The notes under the pieces were generated by a model. That model had not been told where the DNA came from and did not search any database. It saw nothing but the letters and a program-made list of their open reading frames with translations. Position numbers and translations under genes: made by a program. 64,000 nt of DNA from a virus. This document shows positions 36,026-58,124 of this stretch, piece after piece (position 1 is the stretch's first letter; each line of letters starts with the position of its first letter). The stretch is taken from positions 3,732 to 67,731 of IMG/VR virus record IMGVR_UViG_3300014293_000001. One strand, 5' to 3'.

Positions 36026-39000
36026 ACGTGATGGAACAACCGAAGAATATTTAGGTCAAAAAATTGAGCGTGCAGTAGAAAAGGCAATGTTTGCAACATA
36101 TCTTGTTATGGAGCCAACTATGTTAGCAGAACCATTCCAAGTGTCGTTATATGTATGGGATATTATTAAAGACGCAAAAGAACCTATATCTATTAAACAA
36201 TTAGAAAATATTATTTTTCGTAAATTAACTGATGATGGTTATACTGATGCCGCTGTTAATTATATTGAATACAAAACAAAACGTGATATGGAACGTAGTA
36301 AACATAAATTAACTCAAGAATTCTTGGACAAATATCCTGATTACCCTGATTGTATGGACGAGTTAGCTAAATTTGTGTATATTCGTACATATTCTCGTTG
36401 GTTGCCAGATAAAAATCGTCGTGAAACATGGAAAGAAACGTGTGCTCGTGCTATTAATGGTAATTGTTCTTATTTGCCTACGGCAGACGGTGAACCAGAA
36501 GCATTGTTTGATAATATGTTTAATTTACGACAACGTATTTCTGGTCGTATGTTATGGATGGGTGGTACTGAAGCATTGGAAAAAACACCATTAGCGGCGT
36601 ATAATTGTTCTGGTATTACGATGGATAGTATTCATGCATTTCATGAATTATTTTATTTGTTAATGGTAGGTACTGGTGTTGGTTGTCGTGTATTGAAAGA
36701 AGATATTGCAAAATTACCTCAGTTTGATACAACTAAAAAGTTATATCACGTTAAAACTCCTGTTCCTAAAGGTACAACATTAGAGCATACAAAAGTATCT
36801 AACTATGGTCATAGTGTTATCATTACAGTAGGTGATAGTAAAGAAGGTTGGTGTGAAGCATTAACTGCATATCTTACTACTATGACGGATAATGTAACTA
36901 CATCTATTTCTATTGATTACAGTTATATTAGACCTCAAGGTGCACCACTTAAAACATTCGGTGGTTATGCAAGTGGCTATGCATCTTTAAAAGAAATGTT
37001 TGAAAAGCTTCATAAAATTATTGTCAAAGAAAGCACCGATGGTAAATTACGTCCATTGAATGTTGCCGATATGTGTAATATTGTTGGGCAAAATGTAGTT
37101 GCAGGTGGTACACGCAGAACAGCAGAACTTATCCTATTTAGTCCTGATGATGAAGAAATGCTACACGCTAAGGAAAACCTAGACCCAGAACATTACTTCC
37201 GTTATATGTCTAATAACTCTATGTATTTAGAAGAAAAGCCTTCTAAAGAAGGTTTACGTAAGTTAATGATGTCTATTAAAGAAACAGGAGAACCGGGTTT
37301 TATTAATGTTGCTTCTGCTAAAAAGCGTCGTGAAGATTTTGATATATGTAATCCATGTGTAACTGGTACTACAGAAATCTTAACTAAAGAGTATGGTTAT
37401 ATTCAAATTAAAGACGTTGTTGACGAAGATGTAACAGTATGGAATGGTTATGATTGGAGCCCTGTAACACCTAGAGTAACTGGTTATGACCAACCTATGA
37501 TGAGAATTCAATTTTCTAATGGTAATGAATTAGAATGTACTAATTACCATAAATTTGTGATGCAAGATGGTTCTCGCATTGAAGCTCGTGAATTATGTAT
37601 TGGCGACAAATTAGAAAGATGGGAATTCCCTGTAGTTGAAGCAGATGAACGTGCTATGGGTATCTATTATGCAGAAGATTATGACCCATATATTCACGGA
37701 TATTATGCTGGTGATGGTATACAAAATAAACCTTTGATTTACTTATATGGTGAAAAACGTAAATTAGTAGATGTATTCAGCAATTCATCTGGATGTACGA
37801 TTAGTGAAGGGTTAGAACGTGATACAGTATTATTGCCTAAACAACTATCTAAATATCTTGTACCAGATGTTGGGGACGCAGTATATCATAGATTGCGTTA
37901 CTTAGCTGGTCTACTTGATAGTACTGGATGCGTACATTTCAGTGAAGGCTCTGTTGCTATTCCATCTATTGATAAAGAATTCCTTATTAAGATTTCTCGT
38001 CTGTTAAATACACTAGGTTGTCATGCTTCTATTCATTTAATGCATGAAGGTGGTTATCGTAAAGTGCCAGTTGAAGGTGGTCCTGATGATAGTCAAGTAT
38101 ATTATTGCCGACCTACATATAAATTAATTATTCCCGCTTGGTATGTTAGACGTTTAATTAATTTGGGTTTGTCAACTCATTATATTCATTTAGATGCTTA
38201 TCCAAATAGTAATGATAGCCAAGCTATTTATATCACATCTATTGAATATATTAGAAATTGTCCAACAGTATATTGTTTTACTGAAAATAAAAATCATACT
38301 GGTATTTTTAATGGTGTTATGACTGGACAATGTGCTGAAATTTTATTACCATCTAAAGCAGTATGCAACCTTACTAATATCAACGTATCTAAGTTTATTG
38401 ATGAACGTGGTAATGTAATGATACCTCAGCTTAAAGAAGCATGTAAATTATCTGCTCGTGCTTGTTATCGTTTAACTGAACCTGAATTAGAATTAGAAGG
38501 TTGGAGTGATATTCACCATAGAGACCGTTTAATTGGTTGCTCTATTACAGGTTGGCAAGATGCTGTAGCTGGTAATTTAACGAAAGAAGAACAAGAAGCA
38601 TTACTTGTATTAATGAAAATGTGGATTAACGATGCGGCTAATAAATACGCAGATGAAAACCATCGTCCTCACCCTGTATTGTATACAACAGTACAACCAG
38701 ATGGTACAGGTGGATTAATTAGTAGTTGTTCTGCTGGTGTTCATTATAATCATGCTCCATATTATTTCAGACGTGTACGTATTTCAACCAATTCTCCATT
38801 ATACCAAGCTGTTAAATATTTAGATGGCTGGCAAATTGATAATGAAGTTGGTCAAGGTGATGATGGTAATACAAAAGTAATTACATTCCCTTGTAAATCT
38901 AAATCTACAATTACAAAATATAATGTATCAGCTATTGAACAATTAGAACAATATAAGATGATGCAAACATGTTACGTGGACCATAATACATCAATTACTG

Positions 39001-39281
39001 TTACAGTAAAAGACAATGAATGGGACGATGTAATAGATTGGTTAGATAAAAATTGGGATTGTGTAGTAGGTATTTCATTCTTGTCTCTAAATCAAGATTA
39101 CTATCCGTTAATGCCTTATGAAGAATGCACTAAAGAACAGTACTTAGAATTAAAATCTAAAATGTCTCCACTTGACCCAGAATTAGTCAATAAATATGAA
39201 TTTGAACTACAAACTGTAGGTAAAGATTTTGAAATTGATGAAAGTGGAGAATGTGAAGATGGTCATTGCCCAGTGCGGTAG
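36012..39281 (+). CDS. ribonucleotide reductase large chain (class II/NrdJ-like, tentative class) interrupted by an intein
   Basis: GAGGTGG SD before ATG 36012 'MQVIKRDGTTEEY'; 'GGTRRTAELILFS'; active site 'NP|C..intein..|CAEILLP...CNL'; C-terminal Cys pair 'CEDGHC'; no small-subunit gene in the window. Confidence 0.75.
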   Translation: MQVIKRDGTTEEYLGQKIERAVEKAMFATYLVMEPTMLAEPFQVSLYVWDIIKDAKEPISIKQLENIIFRKLTDDGYTDAAVNYIEYKTKRDMERSKHKLTQEFLDKYPDYPDCMDELAKFVYIRTYSRWLPDKNRRETWKETCARAINGNCSYLPTADGEPEALFDNMFNLRQRISGRMLWMGGTEALEKTPLAAYNCSGITMDSIHAFHELFYLLMVGTGVGCRVLKEDIAKLPQFDTTKKLYHVKTPVPKGTTLEHTKVSNYGHSVIITVGDSKEGWCEALTAYLTTMTDNVTTSISIDYSYIRPQGAPLKTFGGYASGYASLKEMFEKLHKIIVKESTDGKLRPLNVADMCNIVGQNVVAGGTRRTAELILFSPDDEEMLHAKENLDPEHYFRYMSNNSMYLEEKPSKEGLRKLMMSIKETGEPGFINVASAKKRREDFDICNPCVTGTTEILTKEYGYIQIKDVVDEDVTVWNGYDWSPVTPRVTGYDQPMMRIQFSNGNELECTNYHKFVMQDGSRIEARELCIGDKLERWEFPVVEADERAMGIYYAEDYDPYIHGYYAGDGIQNKPLIYLYGEKRKLVDVFSNSSGCTISEGLERDTVLLPKQLSKYLVPDVGDAVYHRLRYLAGLLDSTGCVHFSEGSVAIPSIDKEFLIKISRLLNTLGCHASIHLMHEGGYRKVPVEGGPDDSQVYYCRPTYKLIIPAWYVRRLINLGLSTHYIHLDAYPNSNDSQAIYITSIEYIRNCPTVYCFTENKNHTGIFNGVMTGQCAEILLPSKAVCNLTNINVSKFIDERGNVMIPQLKEACKLSARACYRLTEPELELEGWSDIHHRDRLIGCSITGWQDAVAGNLTKEEQEALLVLMKMWINDAANKYADENHRPHPVLYTTVQPDGTGGLISSCSAGVHYNHAPYYFRRVRISTNSPLYQAVKYLDGWQIDNEVGQGDDGNTKVITFPCKSKSTITKYNVSAIEQLEQYKMMQTCYVDHNTSITVTVKDNEWDDVIDWLDKNWDCVVGISFLSLNQDYYPLMPYEECTKEQYLELKSKMSPLDPELVNKYEFELQTVGKDFEIDESGECEDGHCPVR
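37356..38330 (+). mobile_element. 325-aa intein with a LAGLIDADG homing-endonuclease domain inside the RNR active-site motif
   Basis: Starts 'CVTGTTEILT'; LAGLIDADG-like 'GYYAGDG' and 'LAGLLDSTG'; ends 'HTGIFNGVMTGQ' followed by Cys. Confidence 0.75.
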
Positions 39282-39298
39282 CCATGCTCAGCGAGGGG

Positions 39299-39328
39299 TT
39301 GACAGCCGACCCCTCTTTGTGCTATCAT
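39299..39328 (+). promoter_or_regulatory. GC-rich cassette promoter P4
   Basis: TTGACA (39299-304), 18 nt, TGC-TATCAT (39323-28); GAGGGG/CCCCTC inverted repeat brackets the -35. Confidence 0.55.
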
Positions 39329-39349
39329 AGAAGCATGGAAGGAGGATAT

Positions 39350-39811
39350 ATGATTATTTATAAAACAGGAAATATGTTTAATTCTGATGCTAACTATTTT
39401 GTAGACCCAGTGAATCTTATGGGTACATCTGGTAAAGGATTAGCACTTGAGGTTAAACGACGATACCCACAAGCCGAACGAATTTATCAAGTGATATGTA
39501 AATCTGGTCAATTTGATATTGGCGATATTTTACAAACACCAACAGGTGATGATAAATTTATTTTATTTTTCCCAACTAAAAAACATTGGAAAGACCCATC
39601 TGAATATTCGTATATCGAACGTGGTTTAGACTCATTAAAATATCGTTGTCAAGATATACCTAAAAATTCTATTGTTGCCGTACCACAATTAGGTTGCGGT
39701 TTAGGTGGATTAAAATGGGATAAAGTCCATGATTTAATTATCCAAAATCTTAAAGATATTCGTGACGTTACATTTTATATATATGGACCAAATGTGGGTG
39801 AGAAAAAATGA
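39350..39811 (+). CDS. macro-domain protein (ADP-ribose binding/hydrolase fold)
   Basis: GGAAGGAGG SD before ATG 39350; 'IIYKTGNMFNSDANYFVDPVNLMGTSGKGLA...QLGCGLGGL'. Confidence 0.65.
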   Translation: MIIYKTGNMFNSDANYFVDPVNLMGTSGKGLALEVKRRYPQAERIYQVICKSGQFDIGDILQTPTGDDKFILFFPTKKHWKDPSEYSYIERGLDSLKYRCQDIPKNSIVAVPQLGCGLGGLKWDKVHDLIIQNLKDIRDVTFYIYGPNVGEKK

Positions 39812-40098
39812 AACACTTATTTAGAGCAAAAGATGAAAATGGTAATTTAGTTTACGGTTCAGTTGTGTATGGTCAATCTATACCACAGTATTGGGACGGA
39901 GAATTGGATAAAACTTATTTTTTTGTTACTGATATTGAATTTAACGAAAGATGGGAAGTAGTATTTGACGAAGATGGATATGCAGATGATGAATATTATC
40001 CAAATTGGGACGTAGAAGTTACTGAAATTGATTGGGATACATTAGAATTCAATTTGAATGGACAATGGATAAAATATGAGGTGAAAGAATGCAAGTAG
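39808..40098 (+). CDS. YopX-like small protein, paralog A
   Basis: 'MKHLFRAKDENGNLVYGSV...'; similar to 41219..41506. Confidence 0.45.
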   Translation: MKHLFRAKDENGNLVYGSVVYGQSIPQYWDGELDKTYFFVTDIEFNERWEVVFDEDGYADDEYYPNWDVEVTEIDWDTLEFNLNGQWIKYEVKECK

Positions 40099-40751
40099 AA
40101 TTAATAGCTAATACATTATTAGAACTGCCAGTACATGCAATGAGTAAGTGTTATGGTTCTAATACCACAGAGAAGTCTTTAATTAATGCGTGTAAAGCTG
40201 GTCATTTGTCTTTATTGGAACATGCATATGCTACATTCGATATTGAAATGAGCCAAAAATGTTTGGCACAAATTACACGTCATAGACAATTATCTTTTAC
40301 TGTAAAATCTACACGTGGCACAGATTTTAGCGATGGTGGATATTTTGACTCTCATGAACATGATTGGGGTGATATTCCACATCACACAGTAGTGGCAGAT
40401 TGTATTAATAAAATTATTGAAAAACAAATTCAAGAATACCAACTACTAATTCAAGATGGTATTCCATATCAAATTGCCGCTTATGTGTTACCACTAGCTA
40501 CAAATGTTACTATGACTGTTACTGGTAATCTTAGAGCGTGGTTAGAGTATTTGCCTAAACGATTGTGTAAACGTGCTTCTCGTGAACATCAAGCGATTGC
40601 TCGTGAAATTTTTAGACAATTAAACAAAGCATATCCAGATTTATTTACATTAGAAATTTTGGGCATGTGTGAGGGTTGTAAAGAAACATCTTGCGATTTT
40701 ACATCTCATAAAAAACAACCTAAGACACCTGTAAGAAAGGAACTACAATGA
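40089..40751 (+). CDS. thyX: flavin-dependent thymidylate synthase
   Basis: ThyX signature 'RHRQLSFTVKSTR'; 220 aa. Confidence 0.8.
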   Translation: MQVELIANTLLELPVHAMSKCYGSNTTEKSLINACKAGHLSLLEHAYATFDIEMSQKCLAQITRHRQLSFTVKSTRGTDFSDGGYFDSHEHDWGDIPHHTVVADCINKIIEKQIQEYQLLIQDGIPYQIAAYVLPLATNVTMTVTGNLRAWLEYLPKRLCKRASREHQAIAREIFRQLNKAYPDLFTLEILGMCEGCKETSCDFTSHKKQPKTPVRKELQ

Positions 40752-42772: not shown

Positions 42773-43204
42773 ATGAGATTATTTGCAAAAGTATCTTATA
42801 TGCCTAACGGTGTTTTACCAGAAAGAAAAACAAAACATTCTGCTGGTTACGATTTAGCGGTAGTTGAAGGTGGGGTTATCCCACCTCATTCTACTAAAAT
42901 CTTTAATACAGGGATTAAGGCATGTATGGAAGATGATGAGGTATTATTAATTTTTGTGCGTTCATCTATTGGTATTAAACGTGGCATTACCTTAGCTAAT
43001 GGTACAGGTGTAATTGATTCTGATTATTATAATAATGAAGACAACGAAGGTCATATTATGTTAGCATTATATAATAATACAGATGAAAATGTAACTATTG
43101 ATGATGGTGAATATGTAGCACAAGGTGTATTTGTAAATTATTTATGCACTGGTGACACAGTAGTAAAAGAACGAAAAGGCGGTATTGGTTCTACAAATGG
43201 CTAA
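42773..43204 (+). CDS. dut: trimeric dUTPase
   Basis: 'SAGYDL', 'GVIDSDY', 'RKGGIGSTN' motifs. Confidence 0.85.
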   Translation: MRLFAKVSYMPNGVLPERKTKHSAGYDLAVVEGGVIPPHSTKIFNTGIKACMEDDEVLLIFVRSSIGIKRGITLANGTGVIDSDYYNNEDNEGHIMLALYNNTDENVTIDDGEYVAQGVFVNYLCTGDTVVKERKGGIGSTNG

Positions 43205-45292: not shown

Positions 45293-45326
45293 AAAAAAAG
45301 CCCCAATTAAGGGGCTTATTTTTTTA
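45293..45326. terminator. bidirectional rho-independent terminator at the convergence of the + and - blocks
   Basis: A-run, AAGCCCC (45298-304), AATTAA, GGGGCTT (45311-17), T-run. Confidence 0.8.
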
Positions 45327-46395: not shown

Positions 46396-46575
46396 TTATA
46401 TTAATTCAGCATAATACGTTGTATTAGATACTGAACGATTGCTATACATATTCATATAAAACGCATATGTATCATCACGCCACTTTTGTACTCTATATTG
46501 CACTCTTGTAGTCAATATCTCAGACGTAACAAAGCACCCACACAATGAGCGAAATCTATCTTCTGGTCTAATCAT
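46396..46575 (-). CDS. small early paralog family, member 1/13 (59 aa, below the track cutoff)
   Basis: GGAGGAAGC SD; 'MIRPEDRF...'. Confidence 0.45.
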   Translation of the reverse strand: MIRPEDRFRSLCGCFVTSEILTTRVQYRVQKWRDDTYAFYMNMYSNRSVSNTTYYAELI

Positions 46576-46584
46576 GCTTCCTCC

Positions 46585-46776
46585 TTATACAAAAAACTTA
46601 ACTTCATAAATCATATTACGTGACATACTCTTACCGTAACGCCCTATGTAGCAATATTTTAATGGTTCTACATCTATACTCAAATAATGGTCATGCAATA
46701 CATTAAATAATAAGTCTTGTTCATACGCATCATATTGGATAGAAGTTGCTTTTAATATATCGCTTTTCCTTATCAT
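46585..46776 (-). CDS. small early paralog family, member 2/13
   Basis: GAGGTG SD before ATG 46776; 'MIRKSDIL...'. Confidence 0.5.
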   Translation of the reverse strand: MIRKSDILKATSIQYDAYEQDLLFNVLHDHYLSIDVEPLKYCYIGRYGKSMSRNMIYEVKFFV

Positions 46777-46786
46777 ATTCACCTCA

Positions 46787-46996
46787 TTAGTATCTTTGTA
46801 ATTTAGCTGCACATATAGATTTATATATTATTGCATTGTAAGAATCTCGTGTATCATATCGCATAATATATAAACCATCTATTGTTAAAACAGTTTGACC
46901 AAATTTGTTTGGAGGACAACAATAACCGTATGTATATGTCGTAGACGCATAATTTTTAACAAGATATACTCTTAACATATTTTTTGTATCAATCAT
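46787..46996 (-). CDS. small early paralog family, member 3/13
   Basis: AGAGGTG SD; 'MIDTKNML...'. Confidence 0.5.
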   Translation of the reverse strand: MIDTKNMLRVYLVKNYASTTYTYGYCCPPNKFGQTVLTIDGLYIMRYDTRDSYNAIIYKSICAAKLQRY

Positions 46997-47199
46997 TCTA
47001 CACCTCTTGTTAATACCACTTTAAATGGTCTTATTCTATCTACATAATAACGTTCACCATATAAATAGTAGAATAATTGTGAAATCGCACATTCGTCTTC
47101 AAGACGTTCATAATTTTCCATATATCTAGTAGTTTTAACTATAGTCGGTCGTTTAATAACATCTGTAAATTGATATAAATATTTTGTATTTAACATCAT
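46993..47199 (-). CDS. small early paralog family, member 4/13
   Basis: AGAGGA SD; ATGA coupling. Confidence 0.5.
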   Translation of the reverse strand: MMLNTKYLYQFTDVIKRPTIVKTTRYMENYERLEDECAISQLFYYLYGERYYVDRIRPFKVVLTRGVE

Positions 47200-47399
47200 T
47201 ATCCTCTTTTCTTCACGTATTTTATTTCAATAACTTTACGATATGCATTATTTTTATTACTATAATTATTTCTATAAGCTAATTTTAATGGGCATAATAC
47301 ATCAGCAACACGTGTCGGATGAAATATAAAGCTAACGTTACCTATACAATTAGAGTAATGTTTAGTTGTTAAAATTACACCATCTGCCGCTCTTATCAT
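47199..47399 (-). CDS. small early paralog family, member 5/13
   Basis: GGTGAAG SD; '..AYRNNYSNKNNAYRKVIEIKY'. Confidence 0.5.
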   Translation of the reverse strand: MIRAADGVILTTKHYSNCIGNVSFIFHPTRVADVLCPLKLAYRNNYSNKNNAYRKVIEIKYVKKRG

Positions 47400-47578
47400 T
47401 TTAACTTCACCACTCTAAACATATTATGACATTGATATAAGTATATAAAATTATCCAACATTACAAATGGTACTGCGTATGTTGATAAATTATTATTATT
47501 TATGAATTGAGATACACGTATTCTCTGTTTAGGATGTACTATATTGACTTGATACAGTCTATCATTTTTGTTTATCAT
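47396..47578 (-). CDS. small early paralog family, member 6/13
   Basis: 'MINKNDRLYQV..'; ATGA coupling. Confidence 0.5.
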   Translation of the reverse strand: MINKNDRLYQVNIVHPKQRIRVSQFINNNNLSTYAVPFVMLDNFIYLYQCHNMFRVVKLK

Positions 47579-47580
47579 AA

Positions 47581-47766
47581 TTAATCACATAACCCCTCAT
47601 ATTTTATTTCAATCATCTGCTGGTAATTATACATATATTTATAAATATATAATAATAGAATATTACCATCATATATATATCCAATACGTTCTTTACACGA
47701 TAGTTTATCTACTACATTCGGATAATCTGTATATGTACATATTACTTTGGCTTTGTTATGTATCAT
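47581..47766 (-). CDS. small early paralog family, member 7/13
   Basis: GGAG SD; 61 aa. Confidence 0.45.
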   Translation of the reverse strand: MIHNKAKVICTYTDYPNVVDKLSCKERIGYIYDGNILLLYIYKYMYNYQQMIEIKYEGLCD

Positions 47767-47953
47767 AATCTAGCTCCATTATTGCAAAAATATAATTATT
47801 ATCGTATCTCATTTGTAATATGTCTATTAATCGCCATTTGACATTATGACATACGAATATACATTCAGATGTATCTACTTTATGACGAATGAATGGCAAA
47901 GTTACATCATTGGATGTTTCTTTTATCAAAAAAGTGTCATTCTTCTTCATCAT
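47756..47953 (-). CDS. small early paralog family, member 8/13
   Basis: AGGTGAAG SD; 'MMKKNDTF...MRYDNNYIFAIMELDY'. Confidence 0.5.
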   Translation of the reverse strand: MMKKNDTFLIKETSNDVTLPFIRHKVDTSECIFVCHNVKWRLIDILQMRYDNNYIFAIMELDYDT

Positions 47954-48137
47954 ACTTCACCTGTACTAATTCATAATTATATCCAGCGGAATATTGATTA
48001 CGAAATATATTGTATACTCCACGAATCTGTTCGTGTATAAATAATAATGGATAGTTGTGTGTATCACCTCGTAGTTCGTAAGCCACTGCATTGGCTCTTA
48101 TTTCAATTAATCGAACACCATCATTTTTATTCAACAT
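47937..48137 (-). CDS. small early paralog family, member 9/13
   Basis: AGGAG SD; 'MLNKNDGV...FRNQYSAGYNYELVQVKY'. Confidence 0.55.
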   Translation of the reverse strand: MLNKNDGVRLIEIRANAVAYELRGDTHNYPLLFIHEQIRGVYNIFRNQYSAGYNYELVQVKYDEEE

Positions 48138-48321
48138 TTTTTACTCCTGCTATGGTATATTCATATCCATTTTTATAATTTCTAATATAAACATCACGTA
48201 TACTATTTAAATCGTCATATGTAAAATACCAACTGTAAGGTTGCACTGAACTGCATAATTTACCAATAGTTTTCGCTGCTCTCATTTCTATTAATGAGAT
48301 TTGATGATATATATTTAACAT
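48127..48321 (-). CDS. small early paralog family, member 10/13
   Basis: AAGGTGAAG SD; '..IRNYKNGYEYTIAGVK'. Confidence 0.55.
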   Translation of the reverse strand: MLNIYHQISLIEMRAAKTIGKLCSSVQPYSWYFTYDDLNSIRDVYIRNYKNGYEYTIAGVKNVE

Positions 48322-48506
48322 AACTTCACCTTAAATGCATTTAACATACCCTGATAATCATTTCTAGCATATTTGTTGCGGAACATTTTTTCGACAAGTA
48401 CTGTACTGATGTAAAAATCAGCACGATAATATCTACTTGCTCCACCACAAAATTGTGGTACATATTCTATTGCTGTCATTCTAATTTTTTGATTTTTATT
48501 TATCAT
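48315..48506 (-). CDS. small early paralog family, member 11/13
   Basis: GAGGTG 6 nt before ATG 48506; 'MINKNQKI...FRNKYARNDYQGML'. Confidence 0.55.
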   Translation of the reverse strand: MINKNQKIRMTAIEYVPQFCGGASRYYRADFYISTVLVEKMFRNKYARNDYQGMLNAFKVKLC

Positions 48507-48516
48507 TCGTATCACC

Positions 48517-48708
48517 TCAATCTTCTAATTTCAAATAAAACACACCGTTATCATCTTTATCGTAACACGCAATTAGTTCATTACACAGATAACAATCAGG
48601 TGAGCTATCTGTTTGTTGATAATCCGTTGTAATAGGACCAAATAATTTGTTAATTATATTATAATTAACTGTATAATAGCTAGTAACTGATGCATAACGA
48701 TTTAGCAT
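48517..48708 (-). CDS. small early paralog family, member 12/13
   Basis: AGAGGTG SD; 63 aa. Confidence 0.45.
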   Translation of the reverse strand: MLNRYASVTSYYTVNYNIINKLFGPITTDYQQTDSSPDCYLCNELIACYDKDDNGVFYLKLED

Positions 48709-48887
48709 ATAAACACCTCTTCACTTATTTGATATACAAAAGCAGCACCGTGCTTGTAGTTTCTTGTAAACAGTGCTAATAATGTCATTGAAGATAATTC
48801 TGTTACAGGATTAGGAAAATCTTGTGTCCATCTGAAATGATTTTTGTATGTTGTTATTTTTACTTTAAATGTTTTTTGTTCTATCAT
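48702..48887 (-). CDS. small early paralog family, member 13/13
   Basis: GAGGTGAAA SD; '..TRNYKHGAAFVYQISEE'. Confidence 0.5.
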   Translation of the reverse strand: MIEQKTFKVKITTYKNHFRWTQDFPNPVTELSSMTLLALFTRNYKHGAAFVYQISEEVFIC

Positions 48888-48938: not shown

Positions 48939-49496
48939 CTATTGGGAAACTTCAGCAGTATTTACTTCTTCATTCACTTCATTTTCTACAGGTGTTTCTG
49001 TAGCTGTTTCAGAAGGTGTTTCAGGAGTTGGTTCTGTTGGTGCTTGAACCATTACAACTGGAGTTGGGTTGGACATTTTGTAGTGTTCGTAGAATTCGGT
49101 ACCCATTTCACGGTCAATTCGTTTTAATTCTTGAATTAACAAATAAGATGTTTCAGCACCACGTTCGATGTATTTCTTAGTGCGTGCTTTAATAGCCATT
49201 AACACGATTTGTTGTAAATCACGTACTTTAACAGTACCAGCTTTAGATACGAATACGAATTTCTTAGCCGTTTCTTCGTTTAAAGAGATAACAGGGATTT
49301 TAATAGTATCTACTGCATCTTTACCAGTGTTAGTAGCGGCAAATTCAGAAATTGCACGAGCAACACCAGATGGAGTAGCAGAATATACTTTAGTTTGTTT
49401 TAAAGAATTGGCAATAAAACGTAATTGTTCTTTATCAGATAAAGCAGAAACGTAGTTAGTAATAATCAAGTTCATTTGTGCAACAGTTGTAGCCAT
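48939..49496 (-). CDS. hypothetical protein with an acidic Pro/Thr/Glu-rich C-terminal tail
   Basis: AGAGGT SD; tail 'PTEPTPETPSETATETPVENEVNEEVN'. Confidence 0.55.
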   Translation of the reverse strand: MATTVAQMNLIITNYVSALSDKEQLRFIANSLKQTKVYSATPSGVARAISEFAATNTGKDAVDTIKIPVISLNEETAKKFVFVSKAGTVKVRDLQQIVLMAIKARTKKYIERGAETSYLLIQELKRIDREMGTEFYEHYKMSNPTPVVMVQAPTEPTPETPSETATETPVENEVNEEVNTAEVSQ

Positions 49497-49500
49497 AATT

Positions 49501-50688
49501 TTATACCTCTTTCATAGTATGATTAATAATTGTTTTCTTAATATTTTGAGTTCGCAATCTGTATTCATCAATGCTATCTTTAGCATAGAGATATACAATA
49601 TTGCAAGGTTCTGTCTGACCAATACGATGTATACGGTCTTCAGCTTGACCCATTAGAGAGGGCGACCACGGATATTCAATAAATATAGCCGTGTGTGCTT
49701 TGGTTAGGGTAATACCAACAGCACTTGCCTGTAAACTACAGATAATCAAATTTGTGTGATTAGCATTCGAGCCAGAGTGCATCTGGAAATTGTCAATATT
49801 TTGTTGTCTATTTCGTTTAGATTGACCACCGATGATGTATTTTGCATCAGGAAATTCCTTTCTTAATTTTTCTACAATATTTCGATGGTGTGCAAATACC
49901 ACAAGGGACTCACCTCTTTCTAATACTTTACGAATGTATTCTATACAATAAGGAAGTTTTTGTTTTAACACTTCTTTATCGTATTTTTCAATCTCCTCAA
50001 ACGAAGTTGGTTCTGGTTGAGATATAGTGCAACAAGGAACCATGTGGACAGTTTTTGGAGGAAGATTTTTTTGTACATTTTTAAGACGTCTTATCCATAC
50101 TTTTTTCATCGCTTCATTGAGCTTTGATAAATTTGAATGACCGTCGTTTGATGTACCCCATGGTGATTGATAAGCTCCACAGAAATCTCTTAGGAATTTA
50201 TCTTTACCACCAAATTTATATGTAAGTCCTGCAATCTCTAATTGACATAACAACTCTTTAGGTCTGTTTAATACTGGTGTACCTGTAATCATAATACGAT
50301 AACGAACACCTTCAACCAATTTCATCGCTGCTTTAGTACACTGAGATGTGGGAGTTTTTAAAATATGACATTCATCGAATATAACTTGTTGTATATTAAG
50401 GCGTTTAAGTGAAACTAAATATCTGGTTAAACGCTCATAATTTGTAATGATAACTTTGGAACTCATATCATCAACATTTACATCAATTCCAGCCCATGTT
50501 TTCAACTCTCTTTTCCAGTTTTCTTTTAGAGGAGCAGGACAAACAACTAAAGTAGGGAACTTATTTCGTTCCTTAATTAAAGTGCATACTTGAACAGTTT
50601 TACCTAAACCCATATCATCACAAAGGAAAATAGATGATTGGTTAAGCATTTTATTAACGCCTTGTCTTTGATATGGGTATAGTTTCAT
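49501..50688 (-). CDS. SNF2-family helicase/translocase
   Basis: 'LCDDMGLGKT' (motif I), 'DECH' (II), 'QAEDRIHRIGQ' (VI). Confidence 0.8.
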   Translation of the reverse strand: MKLYPYQRQGVNKMLNQSSIFLCDDMGLGKTVQVCTLIKERNKFPTLVVCPAPLKENWKRELKTWAGIDVNVDDMSSKVIITNYERLTRYLVSLKRLNIQQVIFDECHILKTPTSQCTKAAMKLVEGVRYRIMITGTPVLNRPKELLCQLEIAGLTYKFGGKDKFLRDFCGAYQSPWGTSNDGHSNLSKLNEAMKKVWIRRLKNVQKNLPPKTVHMVPCCTISQPEPTSFEEIEKYDKEVLKQKLPYCIEYIRKVLERGESLVVFAHHRNIVEKLRKEFPDAKYIIGGQSKRNRQQNIDNFQMHSGSNANHTNLIICSLQASAVGITLTKAHTAIFIEYPWSPSLMGQAEDRIHRIGQTEPCNIVYLYAKDSIDEYRLRTQNIKKTIINHTMKEV

Positions 50689-51812
50689 TATGCCTCCAGT
50701 CTTACAGTACCAGTTTTGTCATCGTAGACACCTTTCACTGTACCGATAACACTATAAAAAATATCGTTTAATGAACCACTAACATGTGGAAAATTTGTGA
50801 CAAAGAATACGCAAGACTTATCTTTAGTATTCTCAGTTAAGTCCCATACAGCACCTTTTTCATCTTCAATAAATTCCATCATAGCATTCATTTTTTCTTG
50901 ATTCATTGGCGTTTTACCACCATTTGCAATACATTTAACCATTGTGTATGTGGTTTTTACCTTTTCTTCTGCTTTAGGTACTTTATACCCAGATAAATAA
51001 GAGGAGTATTTTAATCCATATCTATTAAAGAATGGTGTTTGTACCCAACCATCTAGCACAACATAATGTTTACCACCGTCGATATAATGTTCAATGATTG
51101 TATTACCGTAACCTTCTACTAATTTAGTAAAGTTTGCTAACCAATCTGGTTCTCCAACTGGCGGTGTAATTTCATATTCATAGTAGCTAGTATAAGATGT
51201 ATAACCACATCCACCATAATAGTAACTACTTTTGCGTTCTTCATAACTTGTATTAGAATATTGAATACCTGTTTCAGTAGAAGTATTCCAAGAACCAAGG
51301 ATAATCGCACTTTTTTTACCAAGGATAGCGTACTTGTTTGTACCCATCGCCTTTTTGATAAGATATTGAGTGCTTTCTTTATACAGTTTATCTTTAAGAG
51401 GGAATAACACTTGTGCACCAAAGTACATTGTATCACTATAAGGTGATAACATGCCTTCTTTTGGTGTAAAGTCACTCATTACACCATTATGAGAAAAACC
51501 AATATCTGTAAATACATCAGTTTCACGCATTGTTTCCAAATTGTCGCTAAGTGCAAACGGATGGCAACATTCTGGCGAAATTTTACCAGACGTTGCAATT
51601 CTAAAGTGGAATACACGGTCCCTGTCAGTAGGAAGGTCTTTCACTGCATTCCAAAAATCATCAAAATTCATAAACCCTTTACGAATATGAACTTTCTTTT
51701 TGTTATCATCGTAAATCATGAAACCAGCACCATCAGGATTATTTACGAAGCAGTTTCTAAATTCTTTCTCTGATAACTCTGTATACTTAGATGCATAAGC
51801 AATAACGCACAT
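50688..51812 (-). CDS. class-II (Ntn) glutamine-amidotransferase-like / thiol-peptidase-like protein with a ~190-aa C-terminal extension
   Basis: AAAGGAGG SD; N-terminal 'MCVIAY' nucleophile Cys; 'NPDGAGF'. Confidence 0.6.
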   Translation of the reverse strand: MCVIAYASKYTELSEKEFRNCFVNNPDGAGFMIYDDNKKKVHIRKGFMNFDDFWNAVKDLPTDRDRVFHFRIATSGKISPECCHPFALSDNLETMRETDVFTDIGFSHNGVMSDFTPKEGMLSPYSDTMYFGAQVLFPLKDKLYKESTQYLIKKAMGTNKYAILGKKSAIILGSWNTSTETGIQYSNTSYEERKSSYYYGGCGYTSYTSYYEYEITPPVGEPDWLANFTKLVEGYGNTIIEHYIDGGKHYVVLDGWVQTPFFNRYGLKYSSYLSGYKVPKAEEKVKTTYTMVKCIANGGKTPMNQEKMNAMMEFIEDEKGAVWDLTENTKDKSCVFFVTNFPHVSGSLNDIFYSVIGTVKGVYDDKTGTVRLEA

Positions 51813-53539
51813 TATTTTGCCTCCTTTAATAATCCTGTCTTCTGTAAGACATTACGTAACTCAATGTATTTTTTATTTTTCGCTATACGAGCGATGTTAC
51901 TCCAACCAATATAGCGTATAGAATTCATATTCGCTAAGTCGGTAATTACATCGACAAACTGAATATAAGCATGAATTCGCTCTACATCTTGTGTGGAGCG
52001 GAACATGCGGAACTCTACAGTCTGACTAGGACAAAGATTAATTGCACGATATTTTTCGTTTTCATCTTTTGCCACAGTATAAATTTGAGATAACTCCTTG
52101 ACTGTCATTCCATACTTTTGGCACCAATTACTATCTTCATCAGTTCTGCAAGCAAAAAGCATTAATGTATCAAAATTATTTTCAACAAATCGAATAATTT
52201 TGGCAATTTCATTATTGCCTTTGAAGAAATTACGATTTACATGAATATGTAAACCTGAGTTTGCACTAGACTCACCATGCAAATCTTGCACACGTTTAAA
52301 GAATTTATCATAGTCGATATTACTTAAATGGAATTGAGGTGTACATGGGTGAGTAACGAACTCCATTCCGTCGCGTAATGAGCCGTCATGTTTAGCATAG
52401 ACAATTTTGTTTAAATCACCAATAATCAAATCAGCTCTTTCATTACTTTCGCCACAACGGTGGAATTCCATTTCAATACCAAGGAATTTCTTGCCTTCAC
52501 CATTAAACACTGGCTCTGGTTTAAAATTGTAAGAATGTAAGCCAGTCAATGGAGCTGCACTTTGGGACGAATAATATTTATTGTTTGAATGTCGATAAAA
52601 TTCATTACGTCGTGCCTTACTAAACTTCTTGCCCAAATCTTCTACAAAAATAAAGTCTTCTTCAGTTGCACCATATGTTCCATTATGACATACAAGTCTG
52701 TCTTTTACGCTAGGGTGGAAATAAACTTTACCAGTGCCAGAAATATAACCTTCTATCATTTCTGTTTTCAATCCTGTTTGATGAGATAGAGGACATGTAA
52801 CAATGAATTGGTCTACTAATACTGGGTGTATACCCGATTGTTTAACAATGTCACGTTCATCTGCAATATAGAACGGCACGCCAGTAACTTTACAAATGGC
52901 AAAATCAGGATAATCCACAAGTTTATCTAACTCATCAAAACCAATGTATAGATTTTCATAATCTTTACCTAAAATCAAGTGGAAGTTTTGAGGGTTGTAC
53001 CAATTACCACTTACAAACGATTTCTTAATGAACTCTGGTTTGTCATCTTTATTCATTCGCATGATACCCAGTTTTGTTCTAACTATAATAACATCATTAC
53101 CCAATGGTTTACCTGTTATAGCACAATGCGTATTAATATTACCAATTACTTCTGTATCATCGTCTACTACCAAGATTTTACTGTCGATAGCAGCACAGTA
53201 GTAATATACCACATCGCCACGTGTCATAACAGTTAAGATATTGTTATATCTATCTTTAAGGACTTGACCAACATGATATTTACATTTTCTATGTGTGTCT
53301 GTAGTACAACCATAATTAATAACAGTTCTACCTGTTACTTTTTCCACTACTAATTCACTATCAGTAGGTGTAATCTGTAATTCAGAAGGTAAAAGAACAG
53401 TACATTCATCAGCTAGAAAGAAATCACGTGAATCATTACTAGCACATAAATATCCGTATGCTCCTTCATGGTTATAACCATCGCCAATTACACGATAAAC
53501 ACTACGTCCGTGTTTAATTTTAATGCCTAATGTAATCAT
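51812..53539 (-). CDS. amidoligase-family (Amidoligase_2-like) protein with a ~330-aa unknown N-terminal region
   Basis: 'FLGIEMEFHR...AKHDGSLRDGMEFVTHP...SGLHIHVNR'. Start ATG 53539 (TAATG overlap) is preferred over the track's 53548. Confidence 0.55.
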   Translation of the reverse strand: MITLGIKIKHGRSVYRVIGDGYNHEGAYGYLCASNDSRDFFLADECTVLLPSELQITPTDSELVVEKVTGRTVINYGCTTDTHRKCKYHVGQVLKDRYNNILTVMTRGDVVYYYCAAIDSKILVVDDDTEVIGNINTHCAITGKPLGNDVIIVRTKLGIMRMNKDDKPEFIKKSFVSGNWYNPQNFHLILGKDYENLYIGFDELDKLVDYPDFAICKVTGVPFYIADERDIVKQSGIHPVLVDQFIVTCPLSHQTGLKTEMIEGYISGTGKVYFHPSVKDRLVCHNGTYGATEEDFIFVEDLGKKFSKARRNEFYRHSNNKYYSSQSAAPLTGLHSYNFKPEPVFNGEGKKFLGIEMEFHRCGESNERADLIIGDLNKIVYAKHDGSLRDGMEFVTHPCTPQFHLSNIDYDKFFKRVQDLHGESSANSGLHIHVNRNFFKGNNEIAKIIRFVENNFDTLMLFACRTDEDSNWCQKYGMTVKELSQIYTVAKDENEKYRAINLCPSQTVEFRMFRSTQDVERIHAYIQFVDVITDLANMNSIRYIGWSNIARIAKNKKYIELRNVLQKTGLLKEAK

Positions 53540-53754
53540 TATAACCATTCCCCCTCAATAATTCTATCAATATCAATAATATTAGATGGTTTTCTGCGGA
53601 ACTCTTTTTCCGTATAGAATGGGTTGGAATAAACTTCGATAGTACCATCAACACCATCTGCTGTTCTACCAACTTGTGTCAAACAATCTGATAGTGTACG
53701 TGTTTTCATAGCGTAAGCTATAGGATAAAATCTTTTAACCATTTTTTTAGGCAT
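53539..53754 (-). CDS. hypothetical 71-aa protein
   Basis: AAAGGTGG SD before ATG 53754. Confidence 0.5.
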   Translation of the reverse strand: MPKKMVKRFYPIAYAMKTRTLSDCLTQVGRTADGVDGTIEVYSNPFYTEKEFRRKPSNIIDIDRIIEGEWL

Positions 53755-54532
53755 TAAAAATACCACCTTTCTTTAACATTAAACCTAAAGAATTATACCA
53801 CATAGGATGTAGAATTTCTTTATTACTACTGAAATAGCGTTTGATTTTTAATACATCAAACGATTTTAATTGTTTCTGCCATACATCATTTTCTGATGTA
53901 AACAATGCAATTTGACATTTTGGCAAATCTTGTGCCAAAGTTGTAGAGGAAATTAATCTTTCTACAAACCCTACTTTGTGTTCACCATCATTGTAATATC
54001 TAGCGGCACAAAGCAAACCATTAATAAACACCAACCCAATAGTAATTGTCTTATCACTACTGATAATGACAGTTGGTACATCTTTTTTAGCTTTATCCTT
54101 ACATAATTGATAAAGTCCTTCGCCGTAATAACTAATGCTACGAAGGTCGGTACCAAATCGTTTTAAACTTTCGTGCAAGCTATCTACTTGAAAATTAGGG
54201 ATAGCAACTAAACTAACATATTGCTTCCCTAAAATAGTACCAATACGTAATGTAGATTTATCGTGTGTTGGACTACCAACAATATATGGCAAGGCACCGT
54301 ATTTAATAAGCTCCTTATCCAAATCGCTTTGTACTAACAAAACTTCAGGACGATACATGCGTGCCACATGTAATCTAAATTCACCCTTTTTAAAACCTTT
54401 CATTGTCTGAGAGGCTCTATCTAATTTTGATGTTTTATACCCGTCAAATTCGGTGAATGTAATTTCACCTTCCTTGTTTCGATATACAGCAAACCCCGTT
54501 TCGGAATTTACCGTTAAACCTAGATTTTTCAT
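53747..54532 (-). CDS. hypothetical 261-aa protein
   Basis: AGGAGG SD; coupled to downstream genes. Confidence 0.55.
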   Translation of the reverse strand: MKNLGLTVNSETGFAVYRNKEGEITFTEFDGYKTSKLDRASQTMKGFKKGEFRLHVARMYRPEVLLVQSDLDKELIKYGALPYIVGSPTHDKSTLRIGTILGKQYVSLVAIPNFQVDSLHESLKRFGTDLRSISYYGEGLYQLCKDKAKKDVPTVIISSDKTITIGLVFINGLLCAARYYNDGEHKVGFVERLISSTTLAQDLPKCQIALFTSENDVWQKQLKSFDVLKIKRYFSSNKEILHPMWYNSLGLMLKKGGIFNA

Positions 54533-54540
54533 ATTACCTC

Positions 54541-54879
54541 CTAAATACCAATGCTAAGACAACCTTCTACTTTGCTTCCATTACGGATAACTTCAGCAGG
54601 AACTAATAAATCGTCCCTTTCTGGATAATGCAACTTGAATAGAGCTGATACAATATACCATACACCTTTTTTAGGCTCTGGTAATTGCGAACAACGATAT
54701 ACCGTTTTAGTAACTCTAATACCGTTGATATACCCTTGGAGTGTGGTAACTTCATCCAATCTCCATTCCTCACCTTTTACAGCAGGAATAACTTGGTCGA
54801 TGTCACCTGTTTCATCAAGTATAGTCACTTCATGGGGAGTTTTGTTCAATATTTCCCCATGATAGCTGAATAAAAACAT
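54541..54879 (-). CDS. hypothetical 112-aa protein
   Basis: GAGGGA SD. Confidence 0.5.
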   Translation of the reverse strand: MFLFSYHGEILNKTPHEVTILDETGDIDQVIPAVKGEEWRLDEVTTLQGYINGIRVTKTVYRCSQLPEPKKGVWYIVSALFKLHYPERDDLLVPAEVIRNGSKVEGCLSIGI

Positions 54880-57000: not shown

Positions 57001-57140
57001 GTATTGTGTCTACCCAACGTGGTGCTGTCCGTCGGGGACAACCTCACTATGCCCCATCTCCGTGGCTCTACCACAAAACCCAGCAACCATGCGGGCTGGC
57101 AAGCTCTCACGTCATGCACCCCAGCCACTCAAGCAAACGT
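57001..57140. promoter_or_regulatory. GC-rich island related to the 23.33-23.48 kb promoter cassette; probable leader/control region of the leftward block
   Basis: Shares 'ACAAA(A)CCCAGCAAC..TGCGG' (same orientation) and 'GTGGT.GAGCCACGGA' (inverted) with 23386-23474, and 'GAGGTTGTCC' with 28486-95. Confidence 0.4.
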
Positions 57141-57179
57141 ATGTTCGATGTTACATCAAATTATATTTTATACAATACG

Positions 57180-58085
57180 TGTATGTGAAATTAAATCGTA
57201 TGCAATATAATATATAAAAAATATATCGTGCGTGATTATATATAATTAAAAATAATTGTATACAACCAATCTATTATAAATTAAATTGTACAAAATATAA
57301 TTGTATTTTTTATCAAATGTAAATATAATAAAATACCATATATATATAATTTTGTCAATAGCCCTAGAATTGATTATATTAGCCTCTAAGGTGCTTCTAA
57401 CTATTTTTAGGTATAATCTATCATTGAATATATAAAAACGCCATACAGGGCAAATAAAGCGTTTTTAATTACACAATTAAATTGTACACAATATAATTGG
57501 ACATAAAAAAAGGCTACCCTACACAATAGGATAGCCTAAAATTAAATTGTACAAAACTAACAATTATCACGATTGAATAATACAAAATAAGATTGCATAC
57601 AATTAATTGAGCATGATGCCACAATATACAATACAATTGAATACCATAAAATAATATCAAATTAAAACAGGTACAACTAAATTGAGTACAATATGATTAT
57701 ATACAATACGGTTGCGGGGAAAATAAAAGTATCAAATTCCATTGTATAAAATATAAACGATATAAGATAATACAGTATAAGATATAATATAATAAAATCA
57801 AATTGTATGCAATACAATTTCTATAAAATAAAATAGTGTAAAACTCAATTGTATACAATATAAGTATAATCACAAACTACATTATACACAATTCAATTTT
57901 ACACAATATATATAAACATATGTTCGATTTTAAAGACAATAAAAAATACCAGATAATCGAATACAATTCAATTGTACACAATTAGTCAGGCGGGGTAATA
58001 AAAAGAATAAAATTCCATTGTATCAAATATACGTATATAGTAATATAAACATATAAAACTAAATTGTATACAATAGAATAGATAC
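57180..58085. repeat. AT-rich non-coding array of at least a dozen ATTGTA(N0-2)TACAAT-type inverted repeats
   Basis: Copies near 57195, 57256, 57284, 57478, 57545, 57595, 57625, 57682, 57740, 57802, 57848, 57885, 57970, 58015 and 58062. There is also a ~50-bp direct repeat at 57714-57764 and 57990-58040. Confidence 0.8.
57504..57537 (-). terminator. rho-independent terminator within the repeat array
   Basis: On the - strand: AGGCTATCCT, ATTGTGT, AGGGTAGCCT, then TTTTTTT. Confidence 0.65.
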
Positions 58086-58115
58086 AAAAAAAGGGTAGCC
58101 TTAATAGACTACCCT
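58085..58115 (-). terminator. rho-independent terminator of gene 58125..58595
   Basis: On the - strand: AGGGTAG, 10-nt loop, CTACCCT, then TTTTTTTG. Confidence 0.7.
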
Positions 58116-58124
58116 CTCAAGATA

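Follow-up and report, generated by a model that had tools for sequence, protein, structure and literature searches.

In many phages an amidoligase of the Amidoligase_2 family is encoded beside a class-II glutamine amidotransferase (GATase)-like hydrolase; the pair is annotated in phiEco32 (gp84/gp83), LUZ24-like phages, Marvin (gp105/gp106), and the OM43 phages MEP401/402. Iyer, Abhiman, Burroughs, and Aravind reportedly predicted this neighborhood of phages and mobile elements, Amidoligase_2 with GAT-II, in 2009, and since that year the pair has been predicted to make or remove amide-linked tags. Here we analyze such a pair in a 64,000-nucleotide (nt) stretch of IMG/VR record IMGVR_UViG_3300014293_000001 (positions 3,732 to 67,731 of that record; hereafter the window), which represents nearly the whole genome of an uncultured tailed phage of ~66 kb. 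An original prediction, made from the letters of this stretch, had joined the two genes with a SNF2 ATPase in one coupled operon that modifies DNA-associated targets. Our comparison indicates that the conserved unit is the two-gene pair, not the trio; the question is thereby narrowed from three genes to two, and the hydrolase pocket restricts the predicted chemistry to glutamine or gamma-glutamyl amides.

The pair in the window belongs to the same families as those of phiEco32, LUZ24, Marvin, and the MEP phages, has the same ligase-then-hydrolase order, usually adjacent or overlapping, and likewise lies among nonstructural genes of phages or mobile elements; tblastn matches to the Marvin and MEP402 proteins (1e-10 to 1e-18) reflect homologous catalytic domains. 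In contrast to the phiEco32 and LUZ24 clusters, none of 38 window proteins scanned with Pfam is recognized as a COOH-NH2 ligase (PF14395), an ATP-grasp enzyme, or a gamma-glutamyl cyclotransferase. The locus also differs from the annotated phage pairs in a 330-residue ligase N-terminus lacking the CxxC motifs of relatives with zinc ribbons, in a second ACT-like domain on the hydrolase, and in its flanking genes: a Crn4-type ring nuclease, two ORFans, and the SNF2 gene. What was already known, then, is the predicted pair; what is new here is the zinc-less N-terminus, the extra ACT-like domain, two or three clade-specific genes, the family-wide SNF2 synteny, and the adjacent Crn4.

Similar logic is found in characterized systems. 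In EgtA/EgtC and PuuA/PuuD, a ligase of the glutamine synthetase/glutamylcysteine synthetase (GS/GCS) fold makes a gamma-glutamyl amide that an amidotransferase-like hydrolase removes, which is the logic proposed here; EgtC, the gamma-glutamyl hydrolase of ergothioneine synthesis, is a fold match of the 374-amino-acid (aa) hydrolase, although this similarity is at fold level only (9–16% identity). Those systems are metabolic, with enzymes acting between the two steps, whereas none is evident here and the setting is a probable early region of a phage. PafA and Dop share the carboxylate–amine ligase fold and a ligase-plus-amide-hydrolase logic on a glutamyl or glutaminyl group, but both have the ligase fold, whereas the hydrolase here is an N-terminal nucleophile (Ntn) class-II GATase; unlike pupylation, the locus has no Pup-like protein with a C-terminal Gln or Glu and no proteasome context.

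Catalytic and accessory domains of the pair

Sequence comparison and structural modeling identify the C-terminal domain of the 575-aa protein as an Amidoligase_2 domain of the glutamine-synthetase/YbdK fold, a predicted ATP-dependent carboxylate–amine ligase. The Pfam match to PF12224 is marginal (22.9 bits, with the cut-off at 22; E = 9.1e-5) and extends over the final portion of the model only; precomputed PF12224 matches exist on orthologs 54–78% identical, PHROG searches returned phrog_16683 (E = 2e-38) as well as PHROGs named "amidoligase" (1e-8), and BLASTP recovered the phiEco32 amidoligase gp84 (2e-8). Across 24 aligned sequences of 25–83% identity, the metal- and ATP-binding motif set (ExE, KHDGS, HxHVNR, EFRxFR) is complete: E358, K383-H-D-G-S387, E393, H431, H433-V-N-R436, E509-F-R511, and R514 are invariant, and E356 is nearly so. 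Foldseek comparison of an AlphaFold2 (AF2) model of the protein, with a predicted local distance difference test score (pLDDT) of 86, matched YbdK (1tt4/1r8g, 2e-5), Dop (4b0r, 2e-3), gamma-glutamyl-methylamide synthetase, and many glutamine synthetases, with PafA (4bjr) also listed. A search of predicted viral structures (BFVD) gave 54 matches, the majority labeled as amidoligases; their sources are crAss-like, Pseudomonas, Cronobacter, Cellulophaga, mycobacterial, and giant viruses. Profile, PHROG, motif, and fold evidence therefore agree with the original assignment of this half of the protein.

The remaining 330 residues comprise two small beta modules (1–105), a disordered linker (109–122), and a series of beta-hairpin units (130–330), modeled mostly at pLDDT 80–95; homologs of residues 1–320 were found in the immediate clade only. 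The region contains no CxxC motif, compared with three to eight in relatives outside the immediate clade (P0041–P0048), where these motifs form zinc-ribbon or LIM-like repeats in the same region. C249 and C284 align with the first Cys of the relatives' CxxC knuckles, and one BFVD top match is labeled "LIM domain containing protein." Zinc-less descendants of CxxC ribbon repeats and a pair of small clade-specific beta modules make up the N-terminus.

In some related phage clades, the gene for a second Amidoligase_2 protein, of ~840 aa, separates the GATase-like gene from that of a longer SNF2 protein (523 aa), and the hydrolase gene thus has a ligase gene on either side (locus L010, 5099–7621; also L065, L068, L073, L089, L091–L093, and L096).

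For the 374-aa protein, 341 homologs were identified and 37 were aligned. Residues M1-C2, N25, G28-A-G30, H69, R71-I-A-T-S-G76, H84-P-F86, H108-N-G110, S126-D127, and S186-N187 are invariant among these, and D27 is nearly so. The best Pfam match, GATase_4, does not reach its curated threshold (E = 0.018; 14.4 bits against a cut-off of 23), and because of this the assignment rests on motifs and fold; 20 of the 37 family members give weak GATase_4 matches of their own (best 5.9e-5). Comparison of the family profile with PDB sequences aligns the R, HPF, and HNG motifs with 1te5, a YafJ-like protein, and these motifs are likewise aligned in gp83, the phiEco32 GATase. The AF2 model (pLDDT 84 overall, above 90 in the N-terminal domain) has an Ntn alpha-beta-beta-alpha fold, with Foldseek matches to the glutaminase domain of GlmS (3.7e-6), EgtC (6e-4), and PurF. 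On these motif and model data, the N-terminal domain is a Cys-1 class-II GATase-like Ntn hydrolase, as the MCVIAY start had originally been read to indicate; that motif and the quoted ligase motifs (GIEMEFHR, HDGSL, GMEFVTHP, SGLHIHVN) are all present.

In GlmS, Cys1 is the nucleophile, Arg, Thr, and Asp residues hold the alpha-carboxyl and alpha-amino groups of glutamine, and an Asn-Gly pair forms the oxyanion hole. GlmS Arg73, Thr76, His86, Asn98-Gly99, and Asp123 are the counterparts of R71, T74, H84, N109-G110, and D127, all of which are invariant in the family. Because the head-group and oxyanion-hole residues are all retained, the substrate would be free glutamine or a gamma-glutamyl-X amide.

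A Tyr-rich disordered linker leads to the two ACT-like domains at the C-terminus, which have weak Foldseek matches to BT0572, GcvR (1u8s), the SerB ACT domain, and aspartokinase regulatory domains. In the alignment, the first of these domains occurs in the immediate clade only and the second is common to the wider family; as a query, residues 201–374 matched 32 loci, all in the immediate clade. The "large extra domains of unknown function" that the two enzymes were said to carry are thus partly accounted for, by the ACT-like domains on the hydrolase and by the descendants of zinc ribbons and the two clade-specific beta modules on the ligase. An apparent ligase–hydrolase fusion in an Atopobiaceae metagenome-assembled genome (MAG; locus L109, 4969–7215) was rejected as a Rosetta-stone link: its joint is Arg-rich and looks off-frame, the GC content is high, and the usual ligase C-terminus is missing, all of which suggests a frameshift or an off-frame stretch that happens to lack stops.

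Conservation of the pair and its link to SNF2

Approximately 170 loci were compared: 80 viral loci collected with the GATase alignment, 67 from bacterial and archaeal genomes, and a second viral sample of 22 new contigs, ranked by similarity to a distant family member placed at the head of the alignment. The window proteins and profiles served as queries against six-frame open reading frames (ORFs) of the fetched loci. Scanning IMG/VR with individual distant relatives of the GATase returned nothing or near-identical contigs only. The amidoligase gene lies directly upstream of the GATase-like gene in 31 of 31 loci of the immediate clade, 41 of 43 in distant clades of the same phage group, 22 of 22 in the second viral sample, and 51 of 55 genome loci. 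The genome loci span Firmicutes, Coriobacteriia, Bacteroidota, Spirochaetes, Ignavibacteria, Planctomycetota, Patescibacteria, and a Thaumarchaeote, and the two genes are also adjacent in Marvin, MEP402, and a conjugative element. The neighborhood is thus conserved, as had been proposed, with adjacency in nearly all of the loci.

In bacterial genomes the setting of the pair is that of mobile elements and of the establishment type. Recurrent neighbors include single-stranded DNA-binding protein (SSB), DUF3846-like proteins, serine recombinases, and a 200-aa "HWNGGR" family, and in one element with a relaxase the ligase itself is fused to DUF3846. Members of this ~200-aa family, which start MGNRAVIT...HWNGGRD, were seen near the pair together with SSB and DUF3846-like genes in loci L098, L099, L100, L149, and L162 (10297–10926).

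The 395-aa protein downstream of the pair is a SNF2 ATPase, as first described: both lobes and motifs I–VI are present, with GLGKT, DECH, TGTP, and QAEDRIHRIGQ readable and matches to PF00176 SNF2-rel_dom (3.7e-35), PF00271 Helicase_C (1.8e-13), and phrog_62 (1e-86). It consists of a complete core and nothing else. ZorD, DpdE, DrmD, and RapA share this core but are about 900–1200 aa long, whereas the window protein has no nuclease or partner domains; matches to all four are local and far below threshold (61–117 bits against cut-offs of 500–1500 for the ZorD, DpdE, and DrmD models, including scores of 112–117 bits where 1200–1500 are required), and no Zorya, Dpd, or DISARM partner gene was found in the window. 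The protein is a member of none of these systems.

The distribution of SNF2 differs from that of the pair. The gene abuts the pair in 21 of 21 testable loci of the immediate clade and follows it after a gap of 87–3344 nt in 33 of 33 testable loci of distant clades of the phage group. It was found within 8 kb downstream in none of the 22 loci of the second viral sample and within 5 kb downstream in three of 42 bacterial and archaeal loci, and it does not lie beside the pair in Marvin, MEP402, AR1086-1, or phiEco32. The phages that carry it share a portal–terminase–early-block layout; the trio is therefore best explained as inherited synteny. SNF2 is a syntenic neighbor in one family of ~65-kb phages, with Veillonella-linked relatives, rather than a component of the conserved module, and a functionally meaningful lock between it and the pair is unsupported; of the proposed trio, only the amidoligase and the GATase-like protein are co-conserved.

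Gene order and coupling

The six tightly packed minus-strand ORFs at the locus (112, 261, 71, 575, 374, and 395 aa; Table 1) are recovered at the positions originally given. The 71-aa gene (53754–53539) could be extended to 75 aa from a GTG at 53766, and the 575-aa gene (53539–51812) to 578 aa from an upstream ATG; the shorter lengths are taken as correct because all orthologs start at the same methionines. Direct reading of the junctions supports each of the start/stop overlaps reported earlier. The 261-aa and 71-aa genes overlap by 8 nt, ATGCCTAA, at 53754/53747, with the TAA inside the ATG-CCT-AA start; at 53539, 51812, and 50688 a TAATG forms a one-base overlap, in which the last A of TAA is the A of the next ATG. 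Shine–Dalgarno-like AGGAGG, GGAGG, or GAGGGGG sequences lie 6–10 nt upstream of each overlapped start.

These overlaps had been taken as the mark of a special operon. Under a crude gene call of the whole window, 34 of 72 same-strand neighbor pairs overlap and 22 more lie 0–15 nt apart; because overlapping codons occur genome-wide, they do not distinguish the flagged genes. Nor do the flagged genes form a self-contained operon: they lie in the middle of a leftward block of ~12 kb, in which a 170-aa gene precedes them at a distance of 9 nt and a 185-aa gene follows after 4 nt, and no terminator-like site was found on the minus strand from 56238 to 46551.

Table 1. Coordinates of features at and around the amidoligase–hydrolase locus. 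Positions refer to the window, except for the divergent Crn4-like gene, whose positions refer to the fetched loci named.
Feature	Position	Strand	Basis or remark
Crn4b-type ring nuclease (predicted), 112 aa	54541..54879	−	PADLOC, PDB matches, family profile
261-aa protein, immediate clade only	53747..54532	−	No family match
71-aa clade-specific protein	53539..53754	−	Stop overlaps amidoligase start (TAATG)
Amidoligase N-terminal extension, residues 1–330	52550..53539	−	AF2 model, alignment, clade search
Amidoligase_2 catalytic domain (predicted), residues 331–575	51812..52549	−	Pfam, PHROG, motifs, fold
Class-II (Ntn, Cys-1) GATase-like domain (predicted), residues 1–193	51234..51812	−	Motifs, fold
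Two ferredoxin/ACT-like beta-alpha-beta-beta-alpha-beta domains, residues 205–277 and 286–372	50697..51200	−	AF2, Foldseek
Minimal SNF2-family ATPase, 395 aa, core only, without targeting domain	49501..50688	−	Pfam, PHROG, motifs
185-aa clade-specific protein, acidic Pro/Glu/Thr-rich tail	48939..49496	−	4 nt past SNF2
Four strong sigma-70-like promoter matches	57160..57358	−	10–11/12 consensus at 57358, 57323, 57262, 57189; weak evidence
Bidirectional terminator-like hairpin	45298..45317	both	Leftward block meets rightward genes; candidate unit end
Macro-domain protein	39266–39811	+	
ThyX	40089–40751	+	
dUTPase	42773–43204	+	
Divergent Crn4-like gene	L162 9617–9943; L098 6965–7291		Also L163, L173, L174, L177, L179, L181, L190, L192, L195, L197

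Ring nuclease and clade-specific neighbors

The 112-aa gene lay inside the flagged range and was passed over in the original prediction. Homology identifies its product as a Crn4b-type ring nuclease, a predicted degrader of cyclic oligoadenylates. It matches PADLOC Unk_01 (PDLC01138, "sometimes fused to CARF") over its full length (E = 9e-22); PDB matches from the single sequence include Crn4a (9sma), Crn4 H15A (9qs9), and Crn4b (9r7b), and the family profile covers the whole protein against Crn4b 9r7b (E = 7e-18). The T-x-H motif (T14, H16) and R99 are invariant in the family alignment, so that full-length homology to Crn4b is accompanied by retention of the T-x-H and Arg catalytic positions; the roles of T13, H15, and R112 in Crn4 catalysis have been described (PMC12830947). 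According to a report of December 2025, Crn4 has a broad spectrum, degrading cA3, cA4, and cA6, and is present in only 11 of 28,137 phage genomes; phage and plasmid copies were proposed as likely anti-CRISPRs (PMC12830947). The copy analyzed here comes from an uncultured phage clade rather than a type III CRISPR locus, and its association with an amidoligase (with the 261-aa and 71-aa genes between) is not described in that study. The gene is kept across the immediate clade (31 loci), so that a large group of uncultured phages joins the handful in which Crn4 is known. Its product is a candidate anti-type-III-CRISPR or anti-CBASS (cyclic oligonucleotide-based antiphage signaling system) protein.

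In 11 of the 22 loci of the second viral sample, and in one Phascolarctobacterium MAG, a second, divergent Crn4-like gene follows the pair at a distance of 0.7–1.4 kb; in these viral loci SNF2 is not nearby. The divergent protein matches Unk_01 at 1e-13, has NLCDH in place of NLTPH, and apparently lacks the catalytic Arg. The recurrence of a rare ring-nuclease family near the pair, in two lineages and at different positions, suggests that these may be anti-defense islands.

Three further genes are specific to the immediate clade. The 261-aa protein, 61–86% identical between orthologous loci, has no match in Pfam, PHROG, NCBIfam, or PADLOC, and its profile found nothing in the PDB; an exhaustive HMMER search of 1.84 billion representative proteins returned its own clade only. 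It was considered as a COOH-NH2 ligase of the phiEco32 type (gp86), which has the same size and position, but BLASTP, family, HMMER, and PDB comparisons were all negative. The 71-aa protein (33 loci) conserves NPFY..EF.RK and a C-terminal EG[ED][WFY]L and has no family match in Pfam, PHROG, or PADLOC. The 185-aa protein (28 loci) has no match in Pfam, PHROG, PDB, or PADLOC; an SSB-like identity was rejected as unsupported in the Pfam and PDB searches. These three genes, Crn4, the ligase N-terminus, and the C-terminal region of the hydrolase travel together in the immediate clade, and all are missing from the distant clades.

Proposed chemistry and alternatives

We tentatively favor, at somewhat less than even confidence, a reading in which the ligase and hydrolase carry out gamma-glutamyl amide chemistry in the service of host takeover or counter-defense. 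The ligase would use ATP to convert a carboxylate, presumably the gamma-carboxyl of glutamate, to an acyl-phosphate and would then join it to an amine, leaving a gamma-glutamyl amide on the target; the hydrolase would act on the gamma-glutamyl group by removal, transfer, or processing, in the manner of EgtC. Candidate targets include polyamines, a lysine on a host or phage protein, and a defense component. The clade-specific additions on the two enzymes arose together and probably dock the enzymes to each other or to a common target, and the pair would act soon after DNA entry.

The gamma-glutamyl part of this reading is favored because of precedent in the GS/GCS fold and because of the cyclotransferase and ATP-grasp genes of sister clusters. 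To our knowledge, every characterized ligase of this fold activates the gamma-carboxyl of glutamate, including glutamine synthetase, gamma-glutamylcysteine ligases, PuuA, gamma-glutamylmethylamide synthetase, and PafA. By annotation, the phiEco32 cluster includes a gamma-glutamyl cyclotransferase as well as an ATP-grasp "S6 glutaminyl transferase," prophages of C. clostridioforme combine amidoligases with a gamma-glutamyl cyclotransferase, and the nearest relatives of the hydrolase include the standalone YafJ/EgtC type besides GlmS. The probable early region with Crn4, together with the SSB and DUF3846 neighbors in mobile elements, suggests host takeover or counter-defense; an early-phage or establishment-type setting, twice beside a Crn4-type ring nuclease, makes this a testable hypothesis.

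Several points weigh against this reading. The Pfam score of the ligase is marginal and that of the hydrolase is below its cut-off. The enzymes that accompany the pair in phiEco32-type clusters are missing from the window by Pfam; a tblastn search of the phiEco32 cluster proteins against the window missed the true amidoligase homolog, and its negatives were not used. A ligase and a hydrolase acting on the same bond in equal amounts would form a futile cycle unless they act sequentially or on different molecules, and the conserved hydrolase pocket is equally compatible with a true glutaminase. The anti-defense context is guilt by association in two phage lineages only: the other SNF2-linked clades lack a Crn4-like gene, as do 66 of 67 genome loci. 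Early timing is read from position and from promoter consensus matches whose total in the region does not exceed that of shuffled controls. The literature searched yielded no experimental study of the Amidoligase_2/GATase pair, in keeping with its original description as experimentally uncharacterized, and no link of the pair to anti-defense or to plasmid leading regions.

The principal rival, which we regard as possible but on balance unlikely, is a split glutamine-dependent amidotransferase in which the GATase-like protein releases ammonia to the amidoligase (X-COOH + Gln + ATP → X-CONH2 + Glu + ADP + Pi), the target being a protein C-terminus, a Glu side chain, cell-wall D-Glu, or a metabolite. 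Ammonia is the nucleophile of glutamine synthetase, whose fold the ligase matches, and the hydrolase has all glutaminase residues intact and the GlmS glutaminase domain as its best fold match. The invariant gene order and frequent translational coupling would fit a 1:1 complex, the clade-specific accretions on both proteins could be its interface, and a minimal two-gene module would have a net reaction with no futile cycle. However, the characterized class-II amidotransferases known to us all have the glutaminase fused N-terminally to the synthase, and we know of no split case; the hydrolase here is standalone, with no fused synthase domain to receive ammonia. Its Pfam affinity, moreover, is to GATase_4 and to standalone hydrolases of the YafJ/EgtC type, and an amidotransferase would leave the gamma-glutamyl cyclotransferase of sister clusters without a role.

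A narrower proposal, that the pair is a new class of enzymatic counter-defense deployed with the ring nuclease immediately on DNA entry and covalently disabling a host immune component, strikes us as quite unlikely. It might, for example, gamma-glutamylate an amine, or cap by amidation the C-terminal carboxylate used in conjugation-type immunity, such as that of CBASS Cap2-primed cyclases or ubiquitin-like Bil systems; in this phage family the SNF2 motor may help it to act at DNA.

We consider it highly unlikely that the pair adds or amidates amino-acid moieties on peptidoglycan or a surface polymer, blocking adsorption of competing phages in a form of superinfection exclusion. Later papers attribute this reading for phiEco32 to Iyer et al. 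2009, and amidation or ligation at cell-wall glutamate is known chemistry (MurT/GatD). Neither protein, however, has a recognizable signal peptide, membrane segment, or wall-binding domain, and the hosts of the pair, an archaeal MAG among them, differ greatly in their envelopes.

A slimmer chance still attaches to the original proposal that the trio is one DNA-tracking machine modifying DNA bases or DNA-bound host proteins. Such a machine would fit the same-strand position of SNF2 after the pair in all 54 testable family loci, across clades whose GATase domains share only 40–51% identity with that of the window and across inserts of 0–3.3 kb, as well as the placement of SNF2 in this block and not among the replication genes of the opposite strand and the TAATG coupling at 50688. 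But SNF2 is missing from all 22 other viral loci and from 39 of 42 genome loci within the distances searched, and from beside the pair in the four named elements; common descent, with the same portal and terminase arrangement, explains the synteny, and overlapping codons are found genome-wide. No nucleic acid-binding domain was recognized on either enzyme, and the phage encodes ThyX and dUTPase, with no DNA-modification enzyme of the hydroxymethylase, kinase, or glycosylase type seen. The known route of thymidine hypermodification was rejected on the same grounds; a DNA or DNA-bound target is unsupported, as is the idea of a DNA-modifying trio.

The slimmest chance of all belongs to the 71-aa protein being a substrate or tag of the ligase, matured or removed by the Ntn hydrolase by analogy with Pup, PafA, and Dop: its stop overlaps the ligase start, its C-terminal motif is conserved, Dop and PafA are among the ligase fold matches, and small ORFs also flank the pair in other elements, but it is confined to the immediate clade whereas the pair is widespread, it ends in Leu rather than Glu or Gln, and the pocket needs a glutamyl head group with free alpha-amino and alpha-carboxyl groups, which a peptide terminus lacks.

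Phage genome and additional observations

The window has a G+C content of ~34% and encodes tail-fiber and tail proteins, a family-A DNA polymerase, a primase–helicase, ribonucleotide reductase, and the large terminase, along with Rad52, ThyX, dUTPase, a macro-domain protein, a RemA-like protein, and an amidase endolysin; no tRNA genes were found in it. Megablast against 50,697 GenBank phage records returned no nucleotide-level relatives. Metagenomic contigs carrying the same proteins are 64–68 kb long, and an SU10-type portal gene adjoins the terminase. A distant member of the phage group occurs in the assembly of a Veillonella sp. isolate and others in Phascolarctobacterium MAGs, and the hosts are for this reason probably Negativicutes of the human mouth or gut. 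The relative in the cultured isolate, Veillonella sp. VA139 (NZ_RQVL01000001.1, 18815–39384, within a 247-kb contig; locus L095), points to a host and may provide a system that can be cultured.

The whole ~12-kb leftward block is likely a transcription unit, as judged from consensus matches only, and is probably expressed early. Its candidate start is the promoter cluster in Table 1, which lies in a gene-free, repeat-rich region. A palindrome resembling AAATTGTATACAAT recurs at least 10 times, in either orientation, in this AT-rich region (57130–58100), which also has two strong terminator-like hairpins, at 58118–58089 and 57537–57511; the region is probably an early control region, or a genome end or origin. 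Farther along the minus strand (46396–48887), 13 small genes of 59–75 aa lie head to tail, many with 1–8 nt overlaps. Most of the products start M-[IL]-x-K-N-D and share a Tyr near the C-terminus, at a mean mutual identity of 23%; a family of small early proteins seems to have expanded here.

On the plus strand, the structural region includes an ORF of 2800 aa (13788–22190) with zero PHROG matches, whose product may be a giant protein that is part of the virion or is ejected. A macro domain occurs in phiEco32 as well, and the macro-domain protein of the window could represent another counter-defense or ADP-ribose-processing function. The ribonucleotide reductase ORF (35904–39281) is 1125 aa long, and its PHROG match is split into two stretches, which hints at inserted sequence, either an intein or an additional domain.

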